A stretch of DNA of 64,000 nucleotides from Candidatus Limnocylindria bacterium (GTDB lineage Bacteria > Chloroflexota > Limnocylindria > Limnocylindrales > CSP1-4), in assembly GCA_046566045.1 (NCBI GenBank), contig JBKHXL010000014.1, positions 4,917 through 68,916 of the forward strand, written 5' to 3'. The notes beneath the pieces are model-generated. The model worked only from the letters and a program-made list of their open reading frames with translations, made no database searches and was not told the DNA's origin. Shown here in pieces: positions 2,766 through 64,000 of the stretch (the stretch's first letter is position 1; every line of letters starts with the position of its first letter). A program made the position numbers and the translations under genes.

Positions 2766-2859
2766 GGAGGGCCCGATCGTGCGGGTGGCGGCCCGGCCCG
2801 GCCATCGGCCAGCAGTACCGCCTCCCGCCCATCGCGCGTGGGACCCTACGTCGCGTCCG

Positions 2860-3975
2860 CTACTCGACCGTGACGCCGGTCCAGGACGTGGTCCCGAGCA
2901 GGACCCACGAGCCGGACACCTGGCCCTTGGCCTCGACGAGGTAGTGGTAGGTCACCCCGACCTCCACGTCGTCGTCCACGAAGGCCGTCGTCCCGGCGTC
3001 CTCGATCTCGGCGCGCAGGCTGGCCGAACCGTCCACCTTGCGCAGGATCCGGTAGTGGCTGAAGCCCTCGCTGCCGAACGGCTCCCAGGCGACGGTCACG
3101 ACGCCGGCCTCGGAGCCCGCCTCGATCCACATGGCGTACGGCGTGGGCGCCGGCGTCTTCGTCGGCGCGGGCTCGTCCGGCGCCTCGAGCGACTTCGTGG
3201 CGGTCGCCGCCAGGACCTTGTAGCCGTCGTCCGTGCCGCGCACGCAGAACACGCGATACCAGGCGGTCGTGCCGGCGGGGGCGTGCTCGTCCCAGGCCTT
3301 GGTCGCCCCGCCCACCTCGGTCACGGCCACGACCTCGTCGCCGCCGCCGGTCGGCCACGACACGGTCTTGTCCGTCGAGCGCACGACCTTGTAGTAGTCG
3401 CCGCCGTCCGCCGGGCAACCGCTCCAGTCGATGAACACGGCGCCTTCCTTGTTGGCGAGGGTCAGGCTCATGACCGGCTTCTCGGTCGGCTTGGCGGTGG
3501 GCTTGGGGGTGGCGTCCGGCTTCTCGGTCGGCTTGGCGGTCGGCTTGGGGGTGGCGTCCGGCTTCTCGGTCGGCGTGGCGGTCGGCTTGGGCGTCGCGTC
3601 CGGCTCCTCGTCCGTCTCTGCCGGCTTCGCGGTGGGCGCGGTGGTGGGCGTCTTGGTCGGATCGGCAACCGAGGTCGGCTCGGCCTTCGCCGTCTCGTCT
3701 GCCACGTCGCTGGCGTCCGGCGCTTCGAAAGCGACGAAGGTCGGTGTCGGCTCGGCGTCGCCCTGGCTGCCGGCGAGGCCAAGATTCGCCCCGAGGGCGA
3801 TCGCGCCCATGAGCAGCGCGCCACCGATGGCGCCCGGCACGGACAGCCCAAGGCGTGGCGCCGGTCGCGGCGCGCGCGGCCGCGGGCCCGTCCGCTCGGT
3901 CAGCGGCTGCGTCCAATCGAAGCCATCGGCGCCCGCGCCGTCGAGCTCGTCCATGTCGTCCGGTTCGTATCCCAT
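2860..3975 (-). CDS. Membrane-anchored protein with a Pro/Thr/Lys-rich tandem-repeat linker and two FN3-like domains; paralog of the anti-sigma sensor domain
   Basis: TM helix (LGLSVPGAIGGALLMGAIALGANLGLAG). A 14-aa repeat (ATPKPTAKPTEKPD) occurs three times. The two C-terminal domains show the same W/C/Y pattern as the anti-sigma C-terminus. It sits 94 bp upstream of the sigma gene on the same strand. Confidence 0.75.
   Translation of the reverse strand: MGYEPDDMDELDGAGADGFDWTQPLTERTGPRPRAPRPAPRLGLSVPGAIGGALLMGAIALGANLGLAGSQGDAEPTPTFVAFEAPDASDVADETAKAEPTSVADPTKTPTTAPTAKPAETDEEPDATPKPTATPTEKPDATPKPTAKPTEKPDATPKPTAKPTEKPVMSLTLANKEGAVFIDWSGCPADGGDYYKVVRSTDKTVSWPTGGGDEVVAVTEVGGATKAWDEHAPAGTTAWYRVFCVRGTDDGYKVLAATATKSLEAPDEPAPTKTPAPTPYAMWIEAGSEAGVVTVAWEPFGSEGFSHYRILRKVDGSASLRAEIEDAGTTAFVDDDVEVGVTYHYLVEAKGQVSGSWVLLGTTSWTGVTVE
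3480..3615 (-). repeat. Three tandem copies of a ~42-bp in-frame repeat encoding (A/E)TPKPT(A/T)(K/T)PTEKPD
   Basis: The DNA shows ctcggtcggcttggcggt(g/c)ggcttggg(g/c)gtggcgtccggctt three times. Its translation on the minus strand is the repeated linker. Confidence 0.8.
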
Positions 3976-4205
3976 GGTCAGTCCCTCCCGAGACCTGTGT
4001 GTCGGCCGCCGGATGGATGACGGTGGCGGCCGGATGATTCCGACCCCTCCACAACGTCCGAGGGCGCGGATCCCTTACCGCGGCGCGACCATCCGATGGT
4101 CCGGGCTACACGCTGGGACCCCCGGCCCATCCACGGGAGCAGACCGGGCGAAGGGGAGACATCAGCCCTTCCGAACGACGGCCACCTGCCAGGAGACGCA
4201 CGACC

Positions 4206-33669: not shown

Positions 33670-33689
33670 CGGCCACCCGCGGCGGTCCG

Positions 33690-34030
33690 CGCCCGGCCCG
33701 TCCGCCCCGGCCCGTCCGTCGGACCTGCCCGGCGTGGCCCGGCCCGGCGTGGCCCGGCCCGTGCGCCGCGGCCTCGCCCCGGCCCGGCCTCGCCCCATCC
33801 GGCCACGCCCCATCCGGCCCGGCCGTCCGCCCCGGCCCGTCCGCCCCGGCCCGTCCGGCCCCGGCCCGTCCGGCCACGCCCCGTCCGACCTGGCCCGTCC
33901 GCCCCGGCCCGCACGTCGCCTCGACCGCCGTGGCCCGCCCCGGCCCGGCCTCGCCCCATCCGGCCACGCCCCGTCCGGCCCGGCCGTCCGCCCCGGTCCG
34001 TCCCGTCCACCCCCGGTCCGCCACTCCGCC
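33690..34030. repeat. C-rich low-complexity degenerate tandem repeats (cggcccgtccg(c/g)cccgg units); G-rich, G4-capable on the minus strand
   Basis: About 340 bp of direct repeats built from the cccgtcc / ccggccc motif. They translate in a shadow frame to PGPSGHAPS runs. No coding signal. Confidence 0.7.
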
Positions 34031-34175
34031 GTGCTTCAGAGGCTGCAGATCGACCTCGAAGGCCGACCATGGCACACCCTCGGCCTGGATCCGTGCCTGT
34101 GAGGCCCGTTCGGGCGTCGAGGCGCACCGGCCCGGAGGCTACAGGGCCTGGCTGCAGTCTCTGAAGCACGCACGA

Positions 34176-34375
34176 TCGTCGCGCGGCCCTCGATGGGCCT
34201 GCGGCGGCCATCGGCGGGGTGGACGGCACCGGCCCGGGGACGGGACGCGGCCTCAGCCTGGGACGATCGTCGCGCGGCCCTCGATGGGCCTTGCGGCGAC
34301 CATCGGCGCGGTGGACGGCACCGGCCCGGGGACGGGACGCGGCCTCAGCCTGGGACGATCGTCGCGCGGGCCTCC
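34176..34375. repeat. About 88-bp direct tandem repeat, 2.2 copies, preceded by a 17-bp inverted-repeat pair (34031-34047 and 34151-34167)
   Basis: Copy 1 at 34176-34263 and copy 2 at 34264-34351 are about 92% identical, with a partial third copy. The inverted pair tgcttcagaggctgcag / ctgcagtctctgaagca brackets about 100 bp. Confidence 0.7.
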
Positions 34376-35627: not shown

Positions 35628-35738
35628 AGGGACGGGACGGGGACGGGACGGGGACGAGGACGGGACGGGACGGGACGGGGACGGGACGGGGACGGGACGG
35701 GACGGGACGGGACGGGACGGGACGGGTCGGGACGGGTC
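35628..35738 (+). repeat. (GGGAC)/(GGGGAC)n microsatellite, about 21 units, 19-130 bp upstream of the LLM gene start; canonical G-quadruplex motif on the plus strand
   Basis: The sequence reads gggacgggacggggacgggacggggacgaggacgggacgggacgggacggggacgggacgggg..., ending in gggtcgggacgggtcggg. It mixes 5- and 6-nt units. Confidence 0.85.
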
Positions 35739-35931
35739 GGGCTCCCAGTCTAGGCTCGATCCGTGCATGGCCGCGGCCATCGCGCATGCTGGTGGTGCGA
35801 CGTTCGCCAAGGAACTCGGGCCAGTCGCCACCGGTCAGGGGCACGCGGGAGACCAGGCACGCGAGAGGCCAGGCACGCGCGACACGGCGAGACGTGCCGC
35901 GCCACGGGCCGCCATCCGGCTTACGGCCCGC

Positions 35932-42320: not shown

Positions 42321-42396
42321 GGGGGAGTAGCTCAACGGTCAGAGCGGCGGGCTTATATCCCGCTGGTTCCAGGTTCGAGTCCTGGCTCCCCTACCA
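42321..42396 (+). tRNA. tRNA with anticodon TAT (UAU), which implies tRNA-Ile for AUA, with an encoded CCA end
   Basis: Manual cloverleaf: acceptor GGGGGAG/CTCCCCT (G1-U72), D-arm GCTC-AACGGTCA-GAGC, anticodon stem GCGGG/CCCGC with loop CTTATAT, variable loop TGGTT, T-arm CCAGG-TTCGAGT-CCTGG, discriminator A, CCA. Coordinates are +/-1. Confidence 0.75.
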
Positions 42397-59160: not shown

Positions 59161-59889
59161 CTAGCGGGCGGCGGCGACCGTGACCAGGGTCAGGATGTAC
59201 GTGTGGCCCACCGCTCCCCACACGATCGAACGGGTGCGCCACGCCAGCCAGCCGTAGACCAGGCCGCCGGCGAGCGTGGACAGCAGCTCCAGCTCGGGCT
59301 TGCCCAGGTGGCCGAACACGAACGGCAGGGCGGCCACCACCACGCCGACCGGTCCCATGATCCGGAGCAGGGTCATCAGCAGGAAGCCGCGGAAGGCGAA
59401 CTCGGCAGCCGCCAGGTCCAGGACGTTGGTCAGGACCAGCTCCGGGAGCGGCGCGGCGCTCGGGCCGTAGTAGGCGCGCACGTCCGGCAGGGTCGCGAAC
59501 CACAGCACGATCGGCGTCATCACGGCGCAGCCGGCCAGCATCAGGCCGAGGCCCCAGCGCCAGTCACCGAGGGTCAGTCCGTAGCGGACCGGTCGGTCGC
59601 GGAACGCGACGAGGACCGTGAGCAGCGGGACGATCCCGAACAGGATGGCGCGCTCGACCGACGTCGCGAGCATCGCGGCCGGGGCGCGGCCGAGGTCCAC
59701 GACGTCGGCGGGGAGGAACGTCCTCGAGTAGTCGAGCAGGAGCACCATCGTGACCACGGCGATGGCGACGGTGGCTCGGACGGGCAGGCGCAGGCCCAGC
59801 ACGTCCACGGTCGCGCGGTCCCCGCTGTCGGCCGGCCACGACGGCCCCGCCGACATCGCCGCCAGGGCGCCCCGGAGTCGTCCGGTCAT
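59161..59889 (-). CDS. CPBP-family intramembrane glutamic endopeptidase (CAAX protease / Abi family)
   Basis: 242 aa from ATG 59889. Conserved motifs: EExxxR-like (AAAEFAFRGFLL), FxxxH (FVFGHLGK) and a C-terminal His (WGAVGH). Confidence 0.75.
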   Translation of the reverse strand: MTGRLRGALAAMSAGPSWPADSGDRATVDVLGLRLPVRATVAIAVVTMVLLLDYSRTFLPADVVDLGRAPAAMLATSVERAILFGIVPLLTVLVAFRDRPVRYGLTLGDWRWGLGLMLAGCAVMTPIVLWFATLPDVRAYYGPSAAPLPELVLTNVLDLAAAEFAFRGFLLMTLLRIMGPVGVVVAALPFVFGHLGKPELELLSTLAGGLVYGWLAWRTRSIVWGAVGHTYILTLVTVAAAR

Positions 59890-60962: not shown

Positions 60963-61945
60963 ATGCCGTTGCCGGTGAACGTCGCGCTCGACGGCCGCCC
61001 GGCGAGCTCGTCGGCGATGCGGGTCGCGACGACCTCGCCCTCGGCGTGGGCGAACACCCCGGCCTTGGGCAGGGGATTGCCGTTCGCCAGCGGGATGGCC
61101 GTCACGTCCCCGATCGCGTAGACGCCCGGGAACGCGGTCTGGAGCGTGGCGCGGTCCACCGGGACCCAGCCGCTCGGTCCGGTCAGGCCGGCCTCGGCCA
61201 CGACCGGTGGCACGCGATGGGGTGGCACGCCGATGAGCAGGTCGAACGGCAGGCGCACGCCGTCGGCGGTGATGACCGCCCCCGGCTCGACCGCCGTGGC
61301 GATGGTCCTGGGGCGGAGCGTGATCCCGGCGTCGGCAAGGCGCCCGTCGAACGCCGCACAGCCGTCCGTGCCGAGGATGGGCAGCGAGCCGGCCTGCGGC
61401 GTGAACACCAGCATCCCGCCGGGGACGCCGCGGGCCTCGAGCCGCTCCATGAGGAGCAGCGCGAGTTCATACGGACCGGGCGGGCACGGATACGGCGCGC
61501 CGAAGATCCCCACGATCACCCGCCCCCCCGCGAAGGCATCGATGCGCGCCGCGTTGGCGCCGCTGGCGGCGGTGTCGTACGCGTCGAGGGCGTGGTCGCG
61601 GAATCCGGGGATCGCGTCCGGATGGCGTTGCGCACCGAGCGCGATGACCACGGCGTCGGCCTCGAGGCGCCGGCCGCCCACGACGGCCGCCCGGGCGGCC
61701 GGGTCGATCGACTCGACCGTGGCGGCGACCACGCGGATGCCACGCCCCTCGAGACTCGCCAGCGACCGCTCGCCCTCGGCGATCGTGGACGTGCCGGCGA
61801 GCGCCCAGTTCTTGCGCAGGCCCATCACGAACGTCGGTCGCCGCTCGACGAGGATCACCTCGTCGTCGGGCTCGAGCTCCCGCCGCAGGGCGACCGCGGT
61901 GGCGATCCCGCCGAATCCTCCTCCGAGGACGAGTACCCGATGCAT
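60806..61945 (-). CDS. FAD-dependent pyridine-nucleotide-disulfide oxidoreductase, sulfide:quinone oxidoreductase-like
   Basis: 379 aa. N-terminal VLVLGGGFGGIATA, a second Rossmann region, and the Cys-containing motif GNGMCFLETG. Confidence 0.7.
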   Translation of the reverse strand: MHRVLVLGGGFGGIATAVALRRELEPDDEVILVERRPTFVMGLRKNWALAGTSTIAEGERSLASLEGRGIRVVAATVESIDPAARAAVVGGRRLEADAVVIALGAQRHPDAIPGFRDHALDAYDTAASGANAARIDAFAGGRVIVGIFGAPYPCPPGPYELALLLMERLEARGVPGGMLVFTPQAGSLPILGTDGCAAFDGRLADAGITLRPRTIATAVEPGAVITADGVRLPFDLLIGVPPHRVPPVVAEAGLTGPSGWVPVDRATLQTAFPGVYAIGDVTAIPLANGNPLPKAGVFAHAEGEVVATRIADELAGRPSSATFTGNGMCFLETGGGRATMVAGDFYADPPAVSLADDSEANFAAKQAFERERLTAWFGA

Positions 61946-62089
61946 GCGATCCCTCCGCGGCGTCGTGTGGCGTCCAGTCTACGGCGGGCGGGCAGGGACC
62001 CGACGGGTCGACCGGGCCGGGTGTAATCGCCGGCGCCGCTCGTCGTTGTCAGGGGCGAACGACCTCCTCCTGCCTGAGGGATACCTGCC

Positions 62090-63082
62090 ATGCGACGATC
62101 GATCCGACCCTTGGCCGCGACGGCCGCCCTGCTGCTCGCCCTGTCGGTGCCCGCGACGGCTCTCGGCCAGGCCGGCGCCGCGGCACGACCCTCCGACGAG
62201 CCGGGCACCACCGTCGCCATCGGGCGGACGGCCCATGCCGGCGCCAAGCTGGCGCGCCTCGCCATCGCCCACGCGAGGCTGGCGGCGCACCGCCCGGCGG
62301 CGCTCGGCGCCGCGCTCCCGGCCGGCCTGACCGACCCGGCGCCCGCCGTCCCGATCGTCGCTCCGGCGGCATCGACGACGCCGGCCGCCGACGCGCGCCC
62401 CGCGGTCTCGATCACCCTGGGCTGCACCGTCGTGCGCCGCGACGGCGCGGCCTCCGACAGCCTGCTCGGGCCCGAGTACCGCGTCGCGGTCGCCTGTCGC
62501 TGGTCCAGGCCCGAGGACGCTCGCGTGCGCGCCTACAAGCTGTGGCGGATCAAGGACGGCGGGACACGCACGCTGATCGCGGTCGTGCCGGCCAGCCAGC
62601 CGCTGCGCTACCTCGACACGCGCGTCTCCTTCGGCCATCGCTACACCTACGCGGTCGTCGGCGTGAAGGCGAACGGCGTGGCCGTCGCGGTCAGCAAGCC
62701 GGTCACGGTCAGGCTCCCGCCCGGCGCGGAGACGATCCGCCTCGGCTGCGCGCTCGGCGCCGTCGACGACAAGCGCGGCGTCATCTGCGCGTGGTCCGAG
62801 GCGCGGCACCCGGCCGCTGCCGGATACGTCCTGTGGCGGTCCGTCGACGGCGGCGCGCGACAGGCCGTCCATCGAACCGGCCTGGACGGGCGGCGCGCCT
62901 TCCTCGACACCGATGTGCGTCGCGGCCAGGTCATCCGCTACGCCGTCGTCGTGGTGGACGAGGCCGGCCACCCGGTCGGTCTCGGCGGTCCGGTCGTCGT
63001 CCGGATCCCCTCGCCCGAGCCGCTGCCGGCCGCGACCGGTGACCCGGCCCCGACCGGCGCTCCCGCCGAGCCCACCCCGTAG
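62090..63082 (+). CDS. Secreted protein with two FN3/Ig-like domains (same domain family as 2860..3975 and the anti-sigma C-terminus)
   Basis: Signal peptide MRRSIRPLAATAALLLALSVPATALG. Two repeats each carry C...C/W/Y-x-Y patterns (ITLGCTVV...YKLWRI...YTYAVVGV and IRLGCALG...YVLWRS...IRYAVVVV). RBS GAGGGA upstream. It lies 6 bp upstream of the ECF sigma gene. Confidence 0.7.
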   Translation: MRRSIRPLAATAALLLALSVPATALGQAGAAARPSDEPGTTVAIGRTAHAGAKLARLAIAHARLAAHRPAALGAALPAGLTDPAPAVPIVAPAASTTPAADARPAVSITLGCTVVRRDGAASDSLLGPEYRVAVACRWSRPEDARVRAYKLWRIKDGGTRTLIAVVPASQPLRYLDTRVSFGHRYTYAVVGVKANGVAVAVSKPVTVRLPPGAETIRLGCALGAVDDKRGVICAWSEARHPAAAGYVLWRSVDGGARQAVHRTGLDGRRAFLDTDVRRGQVIRYAVVVVDEAGHPVGLGGPVVVRIPSPEPLPAATGDPAPTGAPAEPTP

Positions 63083-63088
63083 GCGGGC

Positions 63089-63703
63089 GTGCCGGGCGAC
63101 GGTCGCAGCGAGGCCGTCACACTGGAGCCAGTGGATCGTGAGCACGAGGCTGAGCGCGACGAGCGGACGCTGGTCGAACGCGCCCGGACCGACGCGGAGG
63201 CGTTCGCCGAGCTGTACCGGCGGTACCTCCCGCGCGTCCACGCCTTCGCCTATCGACGGACCGGGTCGGTCGAGGTCGCCGAGGACGTCACGGCGGCCTC
63301 GTTCGAGCGAGCGTGGCGCAGCCTCGGCTCGTTCTCGTGGCGGGCCGGCGGCTTCGGCCCGTGGCTCTTCCGGATCGTCTCGAACGAGCTGGTGGACCAC
63401 TACCGCCGCACGGCCCGGGCCGGATCGGACCGCGCCCGCGGCGCCGCAGCCGCGCTCCACCCCGGCGGTCCGGGCGACCCGGGCGAGGCGCTCGACGAGC
63501 GCGAGTCCACGGCGGAGGTCCTGGCCGCGATGAGCACGCTCAGCCCGCGCTACCAGCGCGCCCTGTCGCTGCGCTACCTGTCCGGCCTGACGCTCGACGA
63601 AGCGGCGGCCGCGATGGGGACGTCCCGGGCGACGATGGCGGTCATCGTCCACCGGGCGACGCGCGCCCTGCGGCGCGCCCTCAGCATGGAGGCGCCGCGA
63701 TGA
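63089..63703 (+). CDS. ECF (group IV) RNA polymerase sigma factor
   Basis: Region 2 (DAEAFAELYRRYLPRVHAFAYRRTG) and region 4 (LSPRYQRALSLRYLSGLTLDEAAAAMGTSRATMAVIVHRA). The start codon is non-ATG. Confidence 0.85.
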   Translation: MPGDGRSEAVTLEPVDREHEAERDERTLVERARTDAEAFAELYRRYLPRVHAFAYRRTGSVEVAEDVTAASFERAWRSLGSFSWRAGGFGPWLFRIVSNELVDHYRRTARAGSDRARGAAAALHPGGPGDPGEALDERESTAEVLAAMSTLSPRYQRALSLRYLSGLTLDEAAAAMGTSRATMAVIVHRATRALRRALSMEAPR

Positions 63704-64000
63704 GCGACGAGGTCCGCCGGCGGCTGGAGGCGGCCGGCGAGCGGCCGGCCCCGGCGCCCCGACCGGCGTTCGCCGCGGCGCTCGAGGAGCGCCTCGCGGC
63801 GCTCGCGGCCGATCCTCGGCCGGCCGCACCGTCCGCACCGTCCACGCCCCTCCGGCGATGGCCCGTGCTGCGGCCGGCGCTCGCGATCGCGGCGGCCGTG
63901 GTCGTGCTCGTGGTGGCGTCGCTCGGCGTCGGCCTCCGGCAGCCGGCCTACGCGTTCGAGCTCAGCGCGGCGTCCGGCGTCGAGGTCGAACTGGTCGACG
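63700..64000 (+). CDS. Anti-sigma factor, 3'-truncated by the window edge
   Basis: ATGA overlap with the sigma stop. Short cytoplasmic N-terminus, then the TM segment VLRPALAIAAAVVVLVVASLGVGL. The remainder is missing. Confidence 0.65.
   Translation, partial: MSDEVRRRLEAAGERPAPAPRPAFAAALEERLAALAADPRPAAPSAPSTPLRRWPVLRPALAIAAAVVVLVVASLGVGLRQPAYAFELSAASGVEVELVD

Follow-up and report, generated by a model that had tools for sequence, protein, structure and literature searches.

The window analysed here, a stretch of 64,000 nucleotides from a Candidatus Limnocylindria bacterium (Limnocylindria being a class of Chloroflexota; assembly GCA_046566045.1, contig JBKHXL010000014.1, positions 4,917 to 68,916), carries at its right edge a group of three genes referred to below as module 2. 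Our analysis, which demonstrates the gene structures, predicted folds, synteny and promoter conservation of this locus, firmly supports its assignment as a conserved three-gene operon with a promoter of the extracytoplasmic function (ECF) type, encoding a secreted protein with tandem FN3 (fibronectin type III) domains (partner 2), an ECF sigma factor (sigma 2) and a single-pass membrane protein (anti-sigma 2). It is likewise firmly supported that the position, topology and N-terminal segment of the third protein fit an anti-sigma factor, and that a long spacer in its ectodomain leads to a terminal FN3-like module. The functional interpretation that we favor, albeit at a probability of only about 0.45, is that module 2 is an autoregulated ECF operon of Candidatus Limnocylindria whose FN3 protein serves as an extracytoplasmic accessory or co-sensor. 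The triad is uncharacterised, and its partner and anti-sigma families are without database annotation.

The three closely packed open reading frames (ORFs) of module 2 are all on the + strand (62090..63082, 63089..63703 as the longest ORF, and 63700 onward) of a window with a G+C content of ~74%, exactly where the original prediction, made from the letters of the window, had placed them. A second copy of the same arrangement (module 1), claimed by that prediction to lie in the opposite orientation, is indeed on the - strand with the same order of partner, sigma and anti-sigma genes. The gene for sigma 2 and the third gene, which starts at 63700, overlap by the 4 nt ATGA. The 6-bp gap originally reported between the partner and sigma genes holds for the longest ORF (GTG 63089) but not for the start conserved in 16 of 16 loci, GTG 63131, from which the orthologues measure 189–197 aa and upstream of which several of them have in-frame stops; the gap is therefore 48 nt, not 6. 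A region scan revealed neither a sigma-70-like promoter nor a terminator-like site inside the unit. The third gene is cut by the end of the window and was completed from public data: an exact-protein look-up returned three Logan contigs with the same genes, and the one aligned (L001) is 100% identical to window positions 61600–64000. The gene runs 717 nt past the window end (stop codon included) and encodes 338 aa in full (L001:3197-4213).

A synteny scan with one genome per species yielded 16 loci with a partner gene, 15 of them in metagenome-assembled genomes (MAGs) of Chloroflexota, mostly Candidatus Limnocylindria, and one in an actinobacterial MAG (L019). The order partner, sigma, anti-sigma on the same strand is preserved in all 16, one of which (L009) is cut by a contig end, with identities to the window proteins (L019 included) of 40–58% for the partner, 51–75% for sigma and 39–47% for anti-sigma. 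Neither the window's flanking genes beside the triad in other loci nor a conserved fourth gene around it could be found beyond sub-clade synteny. As the neighbours vary while the triad stays constant, the triad is the conserved unit. Within it, mean pairwise identity declines from the juxtamembrane beta domain of anti-sigma 2 (67%) through partner domain 2 (61%), the anti-sigma N-terminus (58%) and the anti-sigma C-terminal domain (53.5%) to partner domain 1 (51.5%). The actinobacterial locus (L019 5644..8309; MAG Candidatus Aldehydirespiratoraceae, Actinomycetota) has the complete triad with a GGTGTAATC...CGTT promoter, the sigma and partner being 51% and 40% identical to those of the window, and by ORF reading a 335-aa protein of the same architecture occupies the anti-sigma position. 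This occurrence outside the phylum could be due to horizontal transfer, or to a binning or taxonomy error.

Upstream of the partner gene, in the window and in the 15 loci examined, stands a near-invariant GGTGTAATC-N12/13-TCGTCGTTGTC sequence, in which GTAAT and CGTT are separated by 16 nt (17 in two loci) and the CGTT ends 36–52 nt before the partner start in the Chloroflexota loci. The canonical geometry of an ECF promoter is an AA-containing -35 element, a spacer of ~16–17 nt and a CGT-containing -10 element. The module 2 motif conforms to it, as it does to the pattern of an AAC-like -35 and a CGT-like -10 some 16–17 nt apart that marks autoregulated ECF promoters. A pattern scan gave one match per module-2 locus, in each case on the + strand and immediately before the partner gene, except for L010, which has the one-base variant CTGTAAT; in the 64-kb window the match is likewise single (62022..62047). 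The pattern GTAAK-N14-17-CGTT has exactly two occurrences in the 64 kb, one before each partner gene, compared with an expectation of 0.13 and with at least two matches in 0 of 100 shuffles, and an equivalent GTAA(G/T)-N15-17-CGTT precedes the module-1 partner in three further loci (L020-L022). We infer that sigma 2 itself uses GTAAT-N16-CGTT, which would make the operon autoregulated, with the FN3 protein as its first product.

The membership of sigma 2 in the ECF (group 4) branch of the sigma-70 family is supported by a score of 97.5 bits against the ECF superfamily model TIGR02937 (cutoff 42.9) and by Pfam matches to Sigma70_r2 (6.5e-17), Sigma70_r4_2 (1.2e-11) and Sigma70_ECF (4.4e-8). None of the narrower NCBIfam equivalog or subfamily models reached its cutoff, and the best match among PDB sequences (6DXO, 3e-22) covers only the domain called sigma-2. 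A relationship of module 2 to BldN/RsbN was considered and rejected: the BldN-family model TIGR02952 is the second-best NCBIfam match of sigma 2, at 98.6 against a cutoff of 206.45, and RsbN (RsbN-BldN, PDB 6C03) has a 117-residue cytoplasmic region of three helices, unlike anti-sigma 2. In the main text of the ECF classification 2.0 (PMC7826278), its group tables aside, there is no mention of Chloroflexi or of fibronectin-type partners. A nucleotide block, GCCGTCA(C/G)ACTG, lies just upstream of the sigma 2 start and recurs with minor variation in most of the 16 loci (equivalents in L004-L018) whatever the reading frame, and even where the upstream frame has stops and a GGAG is absent. It is possibly the -10 element of an internal promoter giving a near-leaderless sigma/anti-sigma transcript, or else a translation-initiation element.

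Partner 2 begins with MRR, a single hydrophobic segment (aa 7-26, 20 residues) and then A-L-G|Q; the protein contains no lipobox, its first Cys occurring not before aa 112. Because of this N-terminal pattern and the absence of Cys before residue 112, we read the N-terminus as a Sec signal peptide and not as that of a lipoprotein or as an anchor. The two following domains of ~105 aa are homologous to one another (hhalign 99.7%, E 8e-26), and in an alignment with 14 homologues each has two invariant Cys, an invariant Trp and a Y-x-Y / R-Y-x-V strand motif, the Cys pair probably forming a disulfide in each domain. An AlphaFold2 model with the same 14 homologues aligned consists of two seven-stranded sandwiches, with a pLDDT (predicted local distance difference test) above 90 over residues ~105-310. 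A Foldseek search of this model against the PDB is led by tandem FN3 pairs (Robo3 FN2-3 at 1.8e-9, then integrin beta4, titin and tenascin, all at probability 1.0). The original description of a secreted protein with two FN3-like domains of one family is thus confirmed, and the contrast that it drew between this soluble partner and the membrane-anchored one of module 1 agrees with the sequences (the latter starts with 41 cytoplasmic residues and a transmembrane (TM) segment).

Partner 2 had no match at all in Pfam or NCBIfam. The Pfam sequence model of FN3 (fn3, PF00041) has no match in the window proteins and reaches homologues only at E 0.054 and 3.5e-4; matches to PF25832 and PF25833 (Fn3_SaeA_2nd/3rd) exist only as precomputed ones classed as faint, and a literature search on SaeA found nothing. 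The FN3 assignment is nevertheless right by predicted fold for both partner 2 and the C-terminus of anti-sigma 2, though Pfam fn3 misses both. A word-indexed search retrieved 33 close homologues of partner 2, named only "hypothetical protein [Candidatus Limnocylindria bacterium]". On the other hand, an exhaustive profile search produced 11,120 matches, including giant proteins of up to 34 FN3 repeats, which places the partner 2 domain in the general bacterial FN3 superfamily; the partner orthologues proper are short proteins of 230-480 aa. Some have three FN3 domains (L006 6001..7224; proteins P0002, P0003 and P0005) through a tandem duplication of domain 2, and the anti-sigmas that accompany them keep the usual ~335-aa architecture.

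The original prediction had described the third gene as encoding an anti-sigma factor with a single TM segment, cut off by the window. The completed protein has one such segment by hydropathy. It consists of an N-terminus of ~50 residues, the hydrophobic segment (aa ~53-83), a beta-rich region (aa ~85-155), an 81-residue spacer rich in P/A/S/T and a C-terminal domain of ~100 residues, and it has no Cys anywhere. None of its 30 homologues, obtained in a word-indexed search, has an informative annotation. Structure prediction with AlphaFold2 was performed on a 51%-identical orthologue (P0034, with 25 homologues), not on the window protein itself, and gave helices at residues 3-13 and 24-37 (pLDDT ~90), the TM helix, a beta domain at 83-146 (~96), a disordered linker and a C-terminal sandwich at 233-324 (~97). 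The top PDB matches of this C-terminal domain in Foldseek are single FN3 domains (PTPRZ FN and a Clostridium thermocellum Fn3-like protein, both 4e-4). In profile comparison (hhalign) the C-terminal domain of anti-sigma 2 matches domains 1 and 2 of partner 2 (64%, E 6.5e-5, and 80%, E 1.4e-5, respectively) with the alignments in the proper FN3 strand register, and it is without the partner's Cys pair. Extension of the sequence past position 64000 thus bore out the expectation of an FN3-like anti-sigma C-terminus; however, there is one such domain, not several, and its similarity to the 62090..63082 product is only remote. Since the completed protein does end in an extracytoplasmic FN3-like domain, the absent or unrelated ectodomain that would have told against the original prediction was not encountered.

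The assignment of this protein as an anti-sigma factor relies on the ATGA coupling to the sigma gene, the single TM segment, the two predicted N-terminal helices, a motif in common with module 1 (see below) and a weak NCBIfam match named "anti-sigma factor" (E 0.0015). Its cytoplasmic segment, with two helices in ~40 residues, has the size of the class II clamp (CnrY/NepR) and not that of class I or class III, a resemblance by predicted size only; the class II anti-sigma domain (ASD) has been described as a "two helix clamp" around sigma (PMC6101532). A class I ASD (RseA/RsrA/RslA; ~80-90 residues, four helices, often H-x3-C-x2-C) was rejected, as two helices are predicted and the protein has no Cys and no match to this family in Pfam, NCBIfam or PDB sequences. 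The juxtamembrane beta domain contains a conserved turn, (D/N)-P-(D/E)-G, whose Pro and Gly are invariant in the alignment (A3) and in whose (D/N)-P dipeptide Asn is often replaced by Asp. Asn-Pro and Asp-Pro bonds can be labile.

The sigma factors of the two modules are each other's sole detectable relatives in the window (tblastn 1.2e-33, 42% identity). For the partners, tblastn gave only E 0.018, but the domain hidden Markov models (HMMs) of partner 2 match partner 1 at E 2e-8 and 9e-6, and hhalign aligns partner 2 domains 1 and 2 with partner 1 domain 2 (94%, E 9e-8). The two anti-sigmas differ greatly in size (338 vs 602 aa), and their detectable common part is a short N-terminal motif, AG-R...P..F...L..RL (hhalign 69%, E 4.4e-5); their juxtamembrane domains match weakly (E 0.008), L-x-D-G being the aligned element. 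Partner and anti-sigma are closer kin in module 1, where the partner domains are homologous to the C-terminal domains of the anti-sigma at 96-97% (E 1e-9 to 1e-11, hhalign). The module 1 triad is conserved in the three further loci L020-L022, the first of which shares a 1.68-Mb contig with a module-2 locus (L005) ~490 kb away. As sigma identity is far higher within the module 2 group (63-93%) and the module 1 group (61-75%) than between them (36-44%), we regard the modules, judging by their sequences, as ancient paralogues with the same grammar and not as a local duplication, module 2 having a slimmed-down anti-sigma and a partner that is secreted rather than anchored. Of the lineage-specific expanded family originally suggested, two orthogroups are apparent in the window and the loci examined.

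Anti-sigma 1 matches Pfam FecR at E 0.0024, below the gathering score, and carries an invariant WTA(T/N/L)GTAFDL (residues ~220-235), also present in L020-L022, that aligns with G181-T182 of Escherichia coli FecR (LTALG|TEFTV), the bond at which FecR self-cleaves (PMC8144685). Anti-sigma 1 may therefore autoprocess like FecR/FoxR, although its Chloroflexota host has no TonB-dependent partner. Several nucleotide features of module 1 were also observed. A block GCGGTACTGCTGGCCGATGG between its partner and sigma genes (window ~2766..2859, -) and GGACCATCG(G) upstream of its promoter (~4090..4110, -) are both common to L020-L022 with small variations. The PT-rich linker of partner 1 (KPTATPTEKPDATP...) is encoded by a 42-bp tandem repeat (3474..3610, 3.3 copies, 94% matches), so that its length probably differs between strains.

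Table 1. Coordinates of the features of modules 2 and 1 (window positions unless stated otherwise).
Feature	Position	Strand	Description or basis
Module 2 ECF-type promoter	62020..62050	+	GGTGTAATC-N12-TCGTCGTTGTC = GTAAT-N16-CGTT; CGTT ends 42 nt before partner ATG
Partner 2 gene, tandem-FN3 protein, 330 aa	62090..63082	+	ORF, AlphaFold2, Foldseek, hydropathy
Partner 2 signal peptide (predicted)	aa 1-26
Partner 2 low-confidence linker	aa 27-104
Partner 2 FN3 domain 1	aa 105-211, nt 62402..62722	+
Partner 2 FN3 domain 2	aa 212-310, nt 62723..63019	+
Conserved block GCCGTCA(C/G)ACTG	63113..63124	+	7-18 nt upstream of sigma 2 GTG
ECF sigma 2, 190 aa	63131..63703	+	Conserved GTG; longest ORF from 63089 = 204 aa
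Putative anti-sigma 2, first 100 codons	63700..64000	+	Cytoplasmic two-helix segment, TM helix, start of beta domain
(D/N)-P-(D/E)-G turn	Anti-sigma 2 residues ~103-105, just past window end; L001 ~3503..3511
Module 1 ECF-type promoter, GTAAG-N17-CGTT	4053..4078	-	Pattern scan
Module 1 partner, 371 aa	2860..3975	-	41 cytoplasmic residues, TM segment, PT-repeat linker, two FN3-like domains
Module 1 ECF sigma, 202 aa	2157..2765	-	tblastn with sigma 2
Module 1 anti-sigma, 602 aa	359..2167	-	N-terminal motif, TM segment, FecR-like domain, PT linker, two FN3-like domains

The mechanism that we propose for module 2 starts from the GTAAT-N16-CGTT promoter, which would drive the Sec-secreted protein with two FN3 domains, the 190-aa ECF sigma factor and the single-pass membrane protein with its N-terminus in and C-terminus out. 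The ~40-residue two-helix cytoplasmic segment of anti-sigma 2 would hold sigma 2 at the membrane, while its ectodomain would present the juxtamembrane beta domain and, beyond the disordered P/A/S/T spacer of ~80 residues, the distal FN3-like domain. An envelope or extracellular cue would act on this ectodomain, and the anti-sigma would then be removed, regulated proteolysis, known from other single-pass anti-sigmas, being the most likely route. Once released, sigma 2 would transcribe its own operon, and the co-induced FN3 protein might bind the anti-sigma ectodomain or the same ligand, and so tune or reset signalling. Sigma binding by the third protein, autoregulation, proteolytic release and a partner/anti-sigma interaction are thus all presumed steps, and so, above all, is a direct sensory or modulatory role of the FN3 partner, by analogy to FecA, CnrX or RseB.

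How far this scheme deserves preference depends above all on the role of the partner. The main rival interpretation, a serious contender that we consider possible rather than probable, retains the same sigma/anti-sigma pair and regards the FN3 protein as merely its main output, a secreted or wall-associated structural or adhesive protein with no sensing role. It would account for the promoter-proximal position of the partner gene, for the commonness of FN3 domains in secreted and surface proteins, and for the change of the partner from two to three domains without a change of the anti-sigma; moreover, the promoter motif is found nowhere else in the 64-kb window besides module 1, so that the operon may be a large part of the regulon. 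The accessory or co-sensor interpretation has further points to answer. Co-conservation such as that of partner and anti-sigma would be seen in any operon; the FN3 fold is a generic one, as its 11,120 matches illustrate, which makes a common FN3-likeness weak evidence of interaction; the anti-sigma beside the three-domain partner of L006 has the ordinary size, so the two architectures do not co-vary; and no site-1 or site-2 protease linked to the triad was found. The anti-sigma role on which the scheme depends is also weakened: searches of anti-sigma 2 against Pfam, NCBIfam and PDB sequences returned no known anti-sigma domain and matches only to the low-complexity linker, and its cytoplasmic part of ~40-50 residues is shorter than a class I ASD. 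We still assign the partner to the sensory apparatus because it is extracytoplasmic like the ectodomain of the anti-sigma, because the FN3 kinship of the two proteins is clear in module 1 (and remote in module 2), and because conservation within the module peaks in the juxtamembrane beta domain (67%) and partner domain 2 (61%). A mere output would less readily account for the close homology of the module 1 partner domains to the anti-sigma's own sensor-side domains, for the partner-first grammar kept in both ancient paralogue groups, and for a degree of conservation in partner domain 2 that is unusual in a protein serving only at the surface.

That the third gene does not encode an anti-sigma at all but an unrelated co-transcribed membrane protein, with sigma 2 controlled otherwise (e.g. 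only transcriptionally), appears improbable. The missing match to any anti-sigma domain family would suit this possibility, as would a cytoplasmic segment that is only ~40-50 residues long and lacks a zinc-binding motif as well as Cys. Yet the ATGA overlap is kept and the gene directly follows the sigma gene 3' in 15 of the 16 loci, the 16th being the one cut by a contig end; the single-pass, N-in topology is typical of ECF anti-sigmas; the N-terminal segment is 58% conserved, with two confidently predicted helices of the size of class II domains (PMC6101532), and shares its motif with the FecR-like protein of module 1. A coincidental resemblance between the two modules, which would then be unrelated ECF loci each beside a beta-sandwich protein, is strongly disfavoured. 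The unequal anti-sigmas, the failure of anti-sigma-2 domain HMMs to match anti-sigma 1 and the poor tblastn score between the partners are what might be expected of it, but they stand against an identical gene order, similar promoter motifs at just these two places in 64 kb, sigma factors for which the window holds no detectable relative other than each other (1e-33), the profile matches of the partner domains (94%) and of the anti-sigma N-terminal motif (69%), and the conservation of both triads in other genomes.

ECF sigma/anti-sigma modules with group-specific accessory genes are well known, and several of them offer a comparison. Both modules have in common with FecA/FecR/FecI the three-component logic of an extracytoplasmic partner, a single-pass anti-sigma and an ECF sigma encoded together. 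Anti-sigma 1 has the FecR-like domain with the invariant G-T motif aligned with the self-cleavage site, while the juxtamembrane domain of anti-sigma 2 aligns only weakly with the start of the FecR domain (L-x-D-G-T/S) and shows no match to Pfam FecR (PF04773) at E<=1, which leaves it outside the FecR family. FecR/FoxR-type Gly-Thr self-cleavage was accordingly rejected for anti-sigma 2, whose invariant D-G-T resembles the start of the FecR domain (L-E-D-G-S) but whose domain ends before the GT strand; it was kept for module 1. The modules differ from the Fec system in the absence of an STN-type contact domain, in a partner that is an FN3 protein and encoded first, and in a distal anti-sigma part made of a P/T spacer and FN3-like domain(s). 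No TonB-dependent transducer gene was found in or next to the triad, either in the window or in the 16 loci, which sets module 2 apart from cell-surface signalling systems, and FecI-type NCBIfam models are best-scoring for neither sigma. A classical outer membrane is generally held to be absent from Chloroflexota. A bolder proposal, which we consider unlikely, is that both modules represent an undescribed, outer-membrane-independent form of cell-surface signalling, in which a FecR-derived anti-sigma would bear FN3 modules on a long spacer and a cognate FN3 partner, anchored in module 1 but secreted in module 2, would replace the TonB-dependent transducer as receiver of the signal and communicate through FN3-FN3 contact. 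Both the minimal type of anti-sigma domain and the ECF group would then be new.

In CnrY/CnrX/CnrH of Cupriavidus, as in module 2, an ECF sigma is combined with a membrane anti-sigma that has a very short two-helix cytoplasmic domain, and a third, extracytoplasmic protein (CnrX), encoded in the same operon, does the sensing. However, CnrX is a helical metal sensor and not an FN3 protein, CnrY is almost devoid of an ectodomain compared with ~255 extracytoplasmic residues in anti-sigma 2, and there is no sequence relation to the Cnr proteins. RseB (RseA/sigma-E of E. coli) and CseA (sigma-E of Streptomyces) are secreted proteins or lipoproteins of sigma operons that modulate anti-sigma cleavage or signalling. 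Their likeness to partner 2 is a functional analogy only, as there is no homology, the gene order is another (the partner is first here) and the FN3 fold is unlike that of RseB. The layout of anti-sigma 2 is found again in the SigI/RsgI systems of C. thermocellum (PMC10328401), where an N-terminal segment that binds sigma is followed by one TM helix and a conserved domain next to the membrane, and a long disordered spacer leads to a distal beta-sandwich sensor; on the other hand, SigI is not an ECF sigma, and RsgI systems have no co-encoded FN3 partner. RsgI anti-sigmas self-cleave at Asn-Pro, at a site between beta1 and beta2. An RsgI-like Asn-Pro autoproteolysis of anti-sigma 2 was considered in view of its conserved (D/N)-P turn and rejected: its predicted all-beta domain is not homologous to the alpha/beta/alpha sandwich of the RsgI periplasmic domain, and anti-sigma 2 is not an RsgI protein.

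ECF sigma/anti-sigma pairs constitute the third major mode of bacterial signal transduction, and to our knowledge the cue sensed by most anti-sigma ectodomains is not known. Module 2 is a compact and strongly conserved three-part module in an abundant uncultured class of freshwater and soil bacteria, and it combines a clean, specific promoter motif with a minimal two-helix segment for putative sigma binding and an extracytoplasmic FN3 protein as dedicated partner. Should this partner and the anti-sigma communicate, the module would offer a tractable case of accessory-modulated ECF signalling in bacteria thought to lack an outer membrane, and possibly a link to FecR-type systems in evolution; with the partner as a mere output, the locus would be an ordinary ECF operon. 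The set of sigma, promoter and anti-sigma could serve as an orthogonal regulatory part.

The genes flanking module 2 encode an Rce1-like protease, an EamA transporter, a pyridine-nucleotide disulfide oxidoreductase and a cNMP-binding protein, the last of which follows the completed third gene on the public contigs. The Rce1-like (CPBP) intramembrane protease gene (PF02517, 8.9e-11; ~59161..59889, -), 2 kb upstream of module 2, is tempting as a source of the anti-sigma protease but is not kept beside the triad in other genomes. Elsewhere in the window, three tandem repeat arrays unrelated to one another were observed: a GC-rich 5/15-nt array of ~320 bp (33685..34020), a 92-bp unit present in 2.2 copies with 96% matches (34172..34374), and (GGGAC) x21.6 (35629..35741). 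The only Rfam match at gathering level in the window is a tRNA gene (42321..42393, +).

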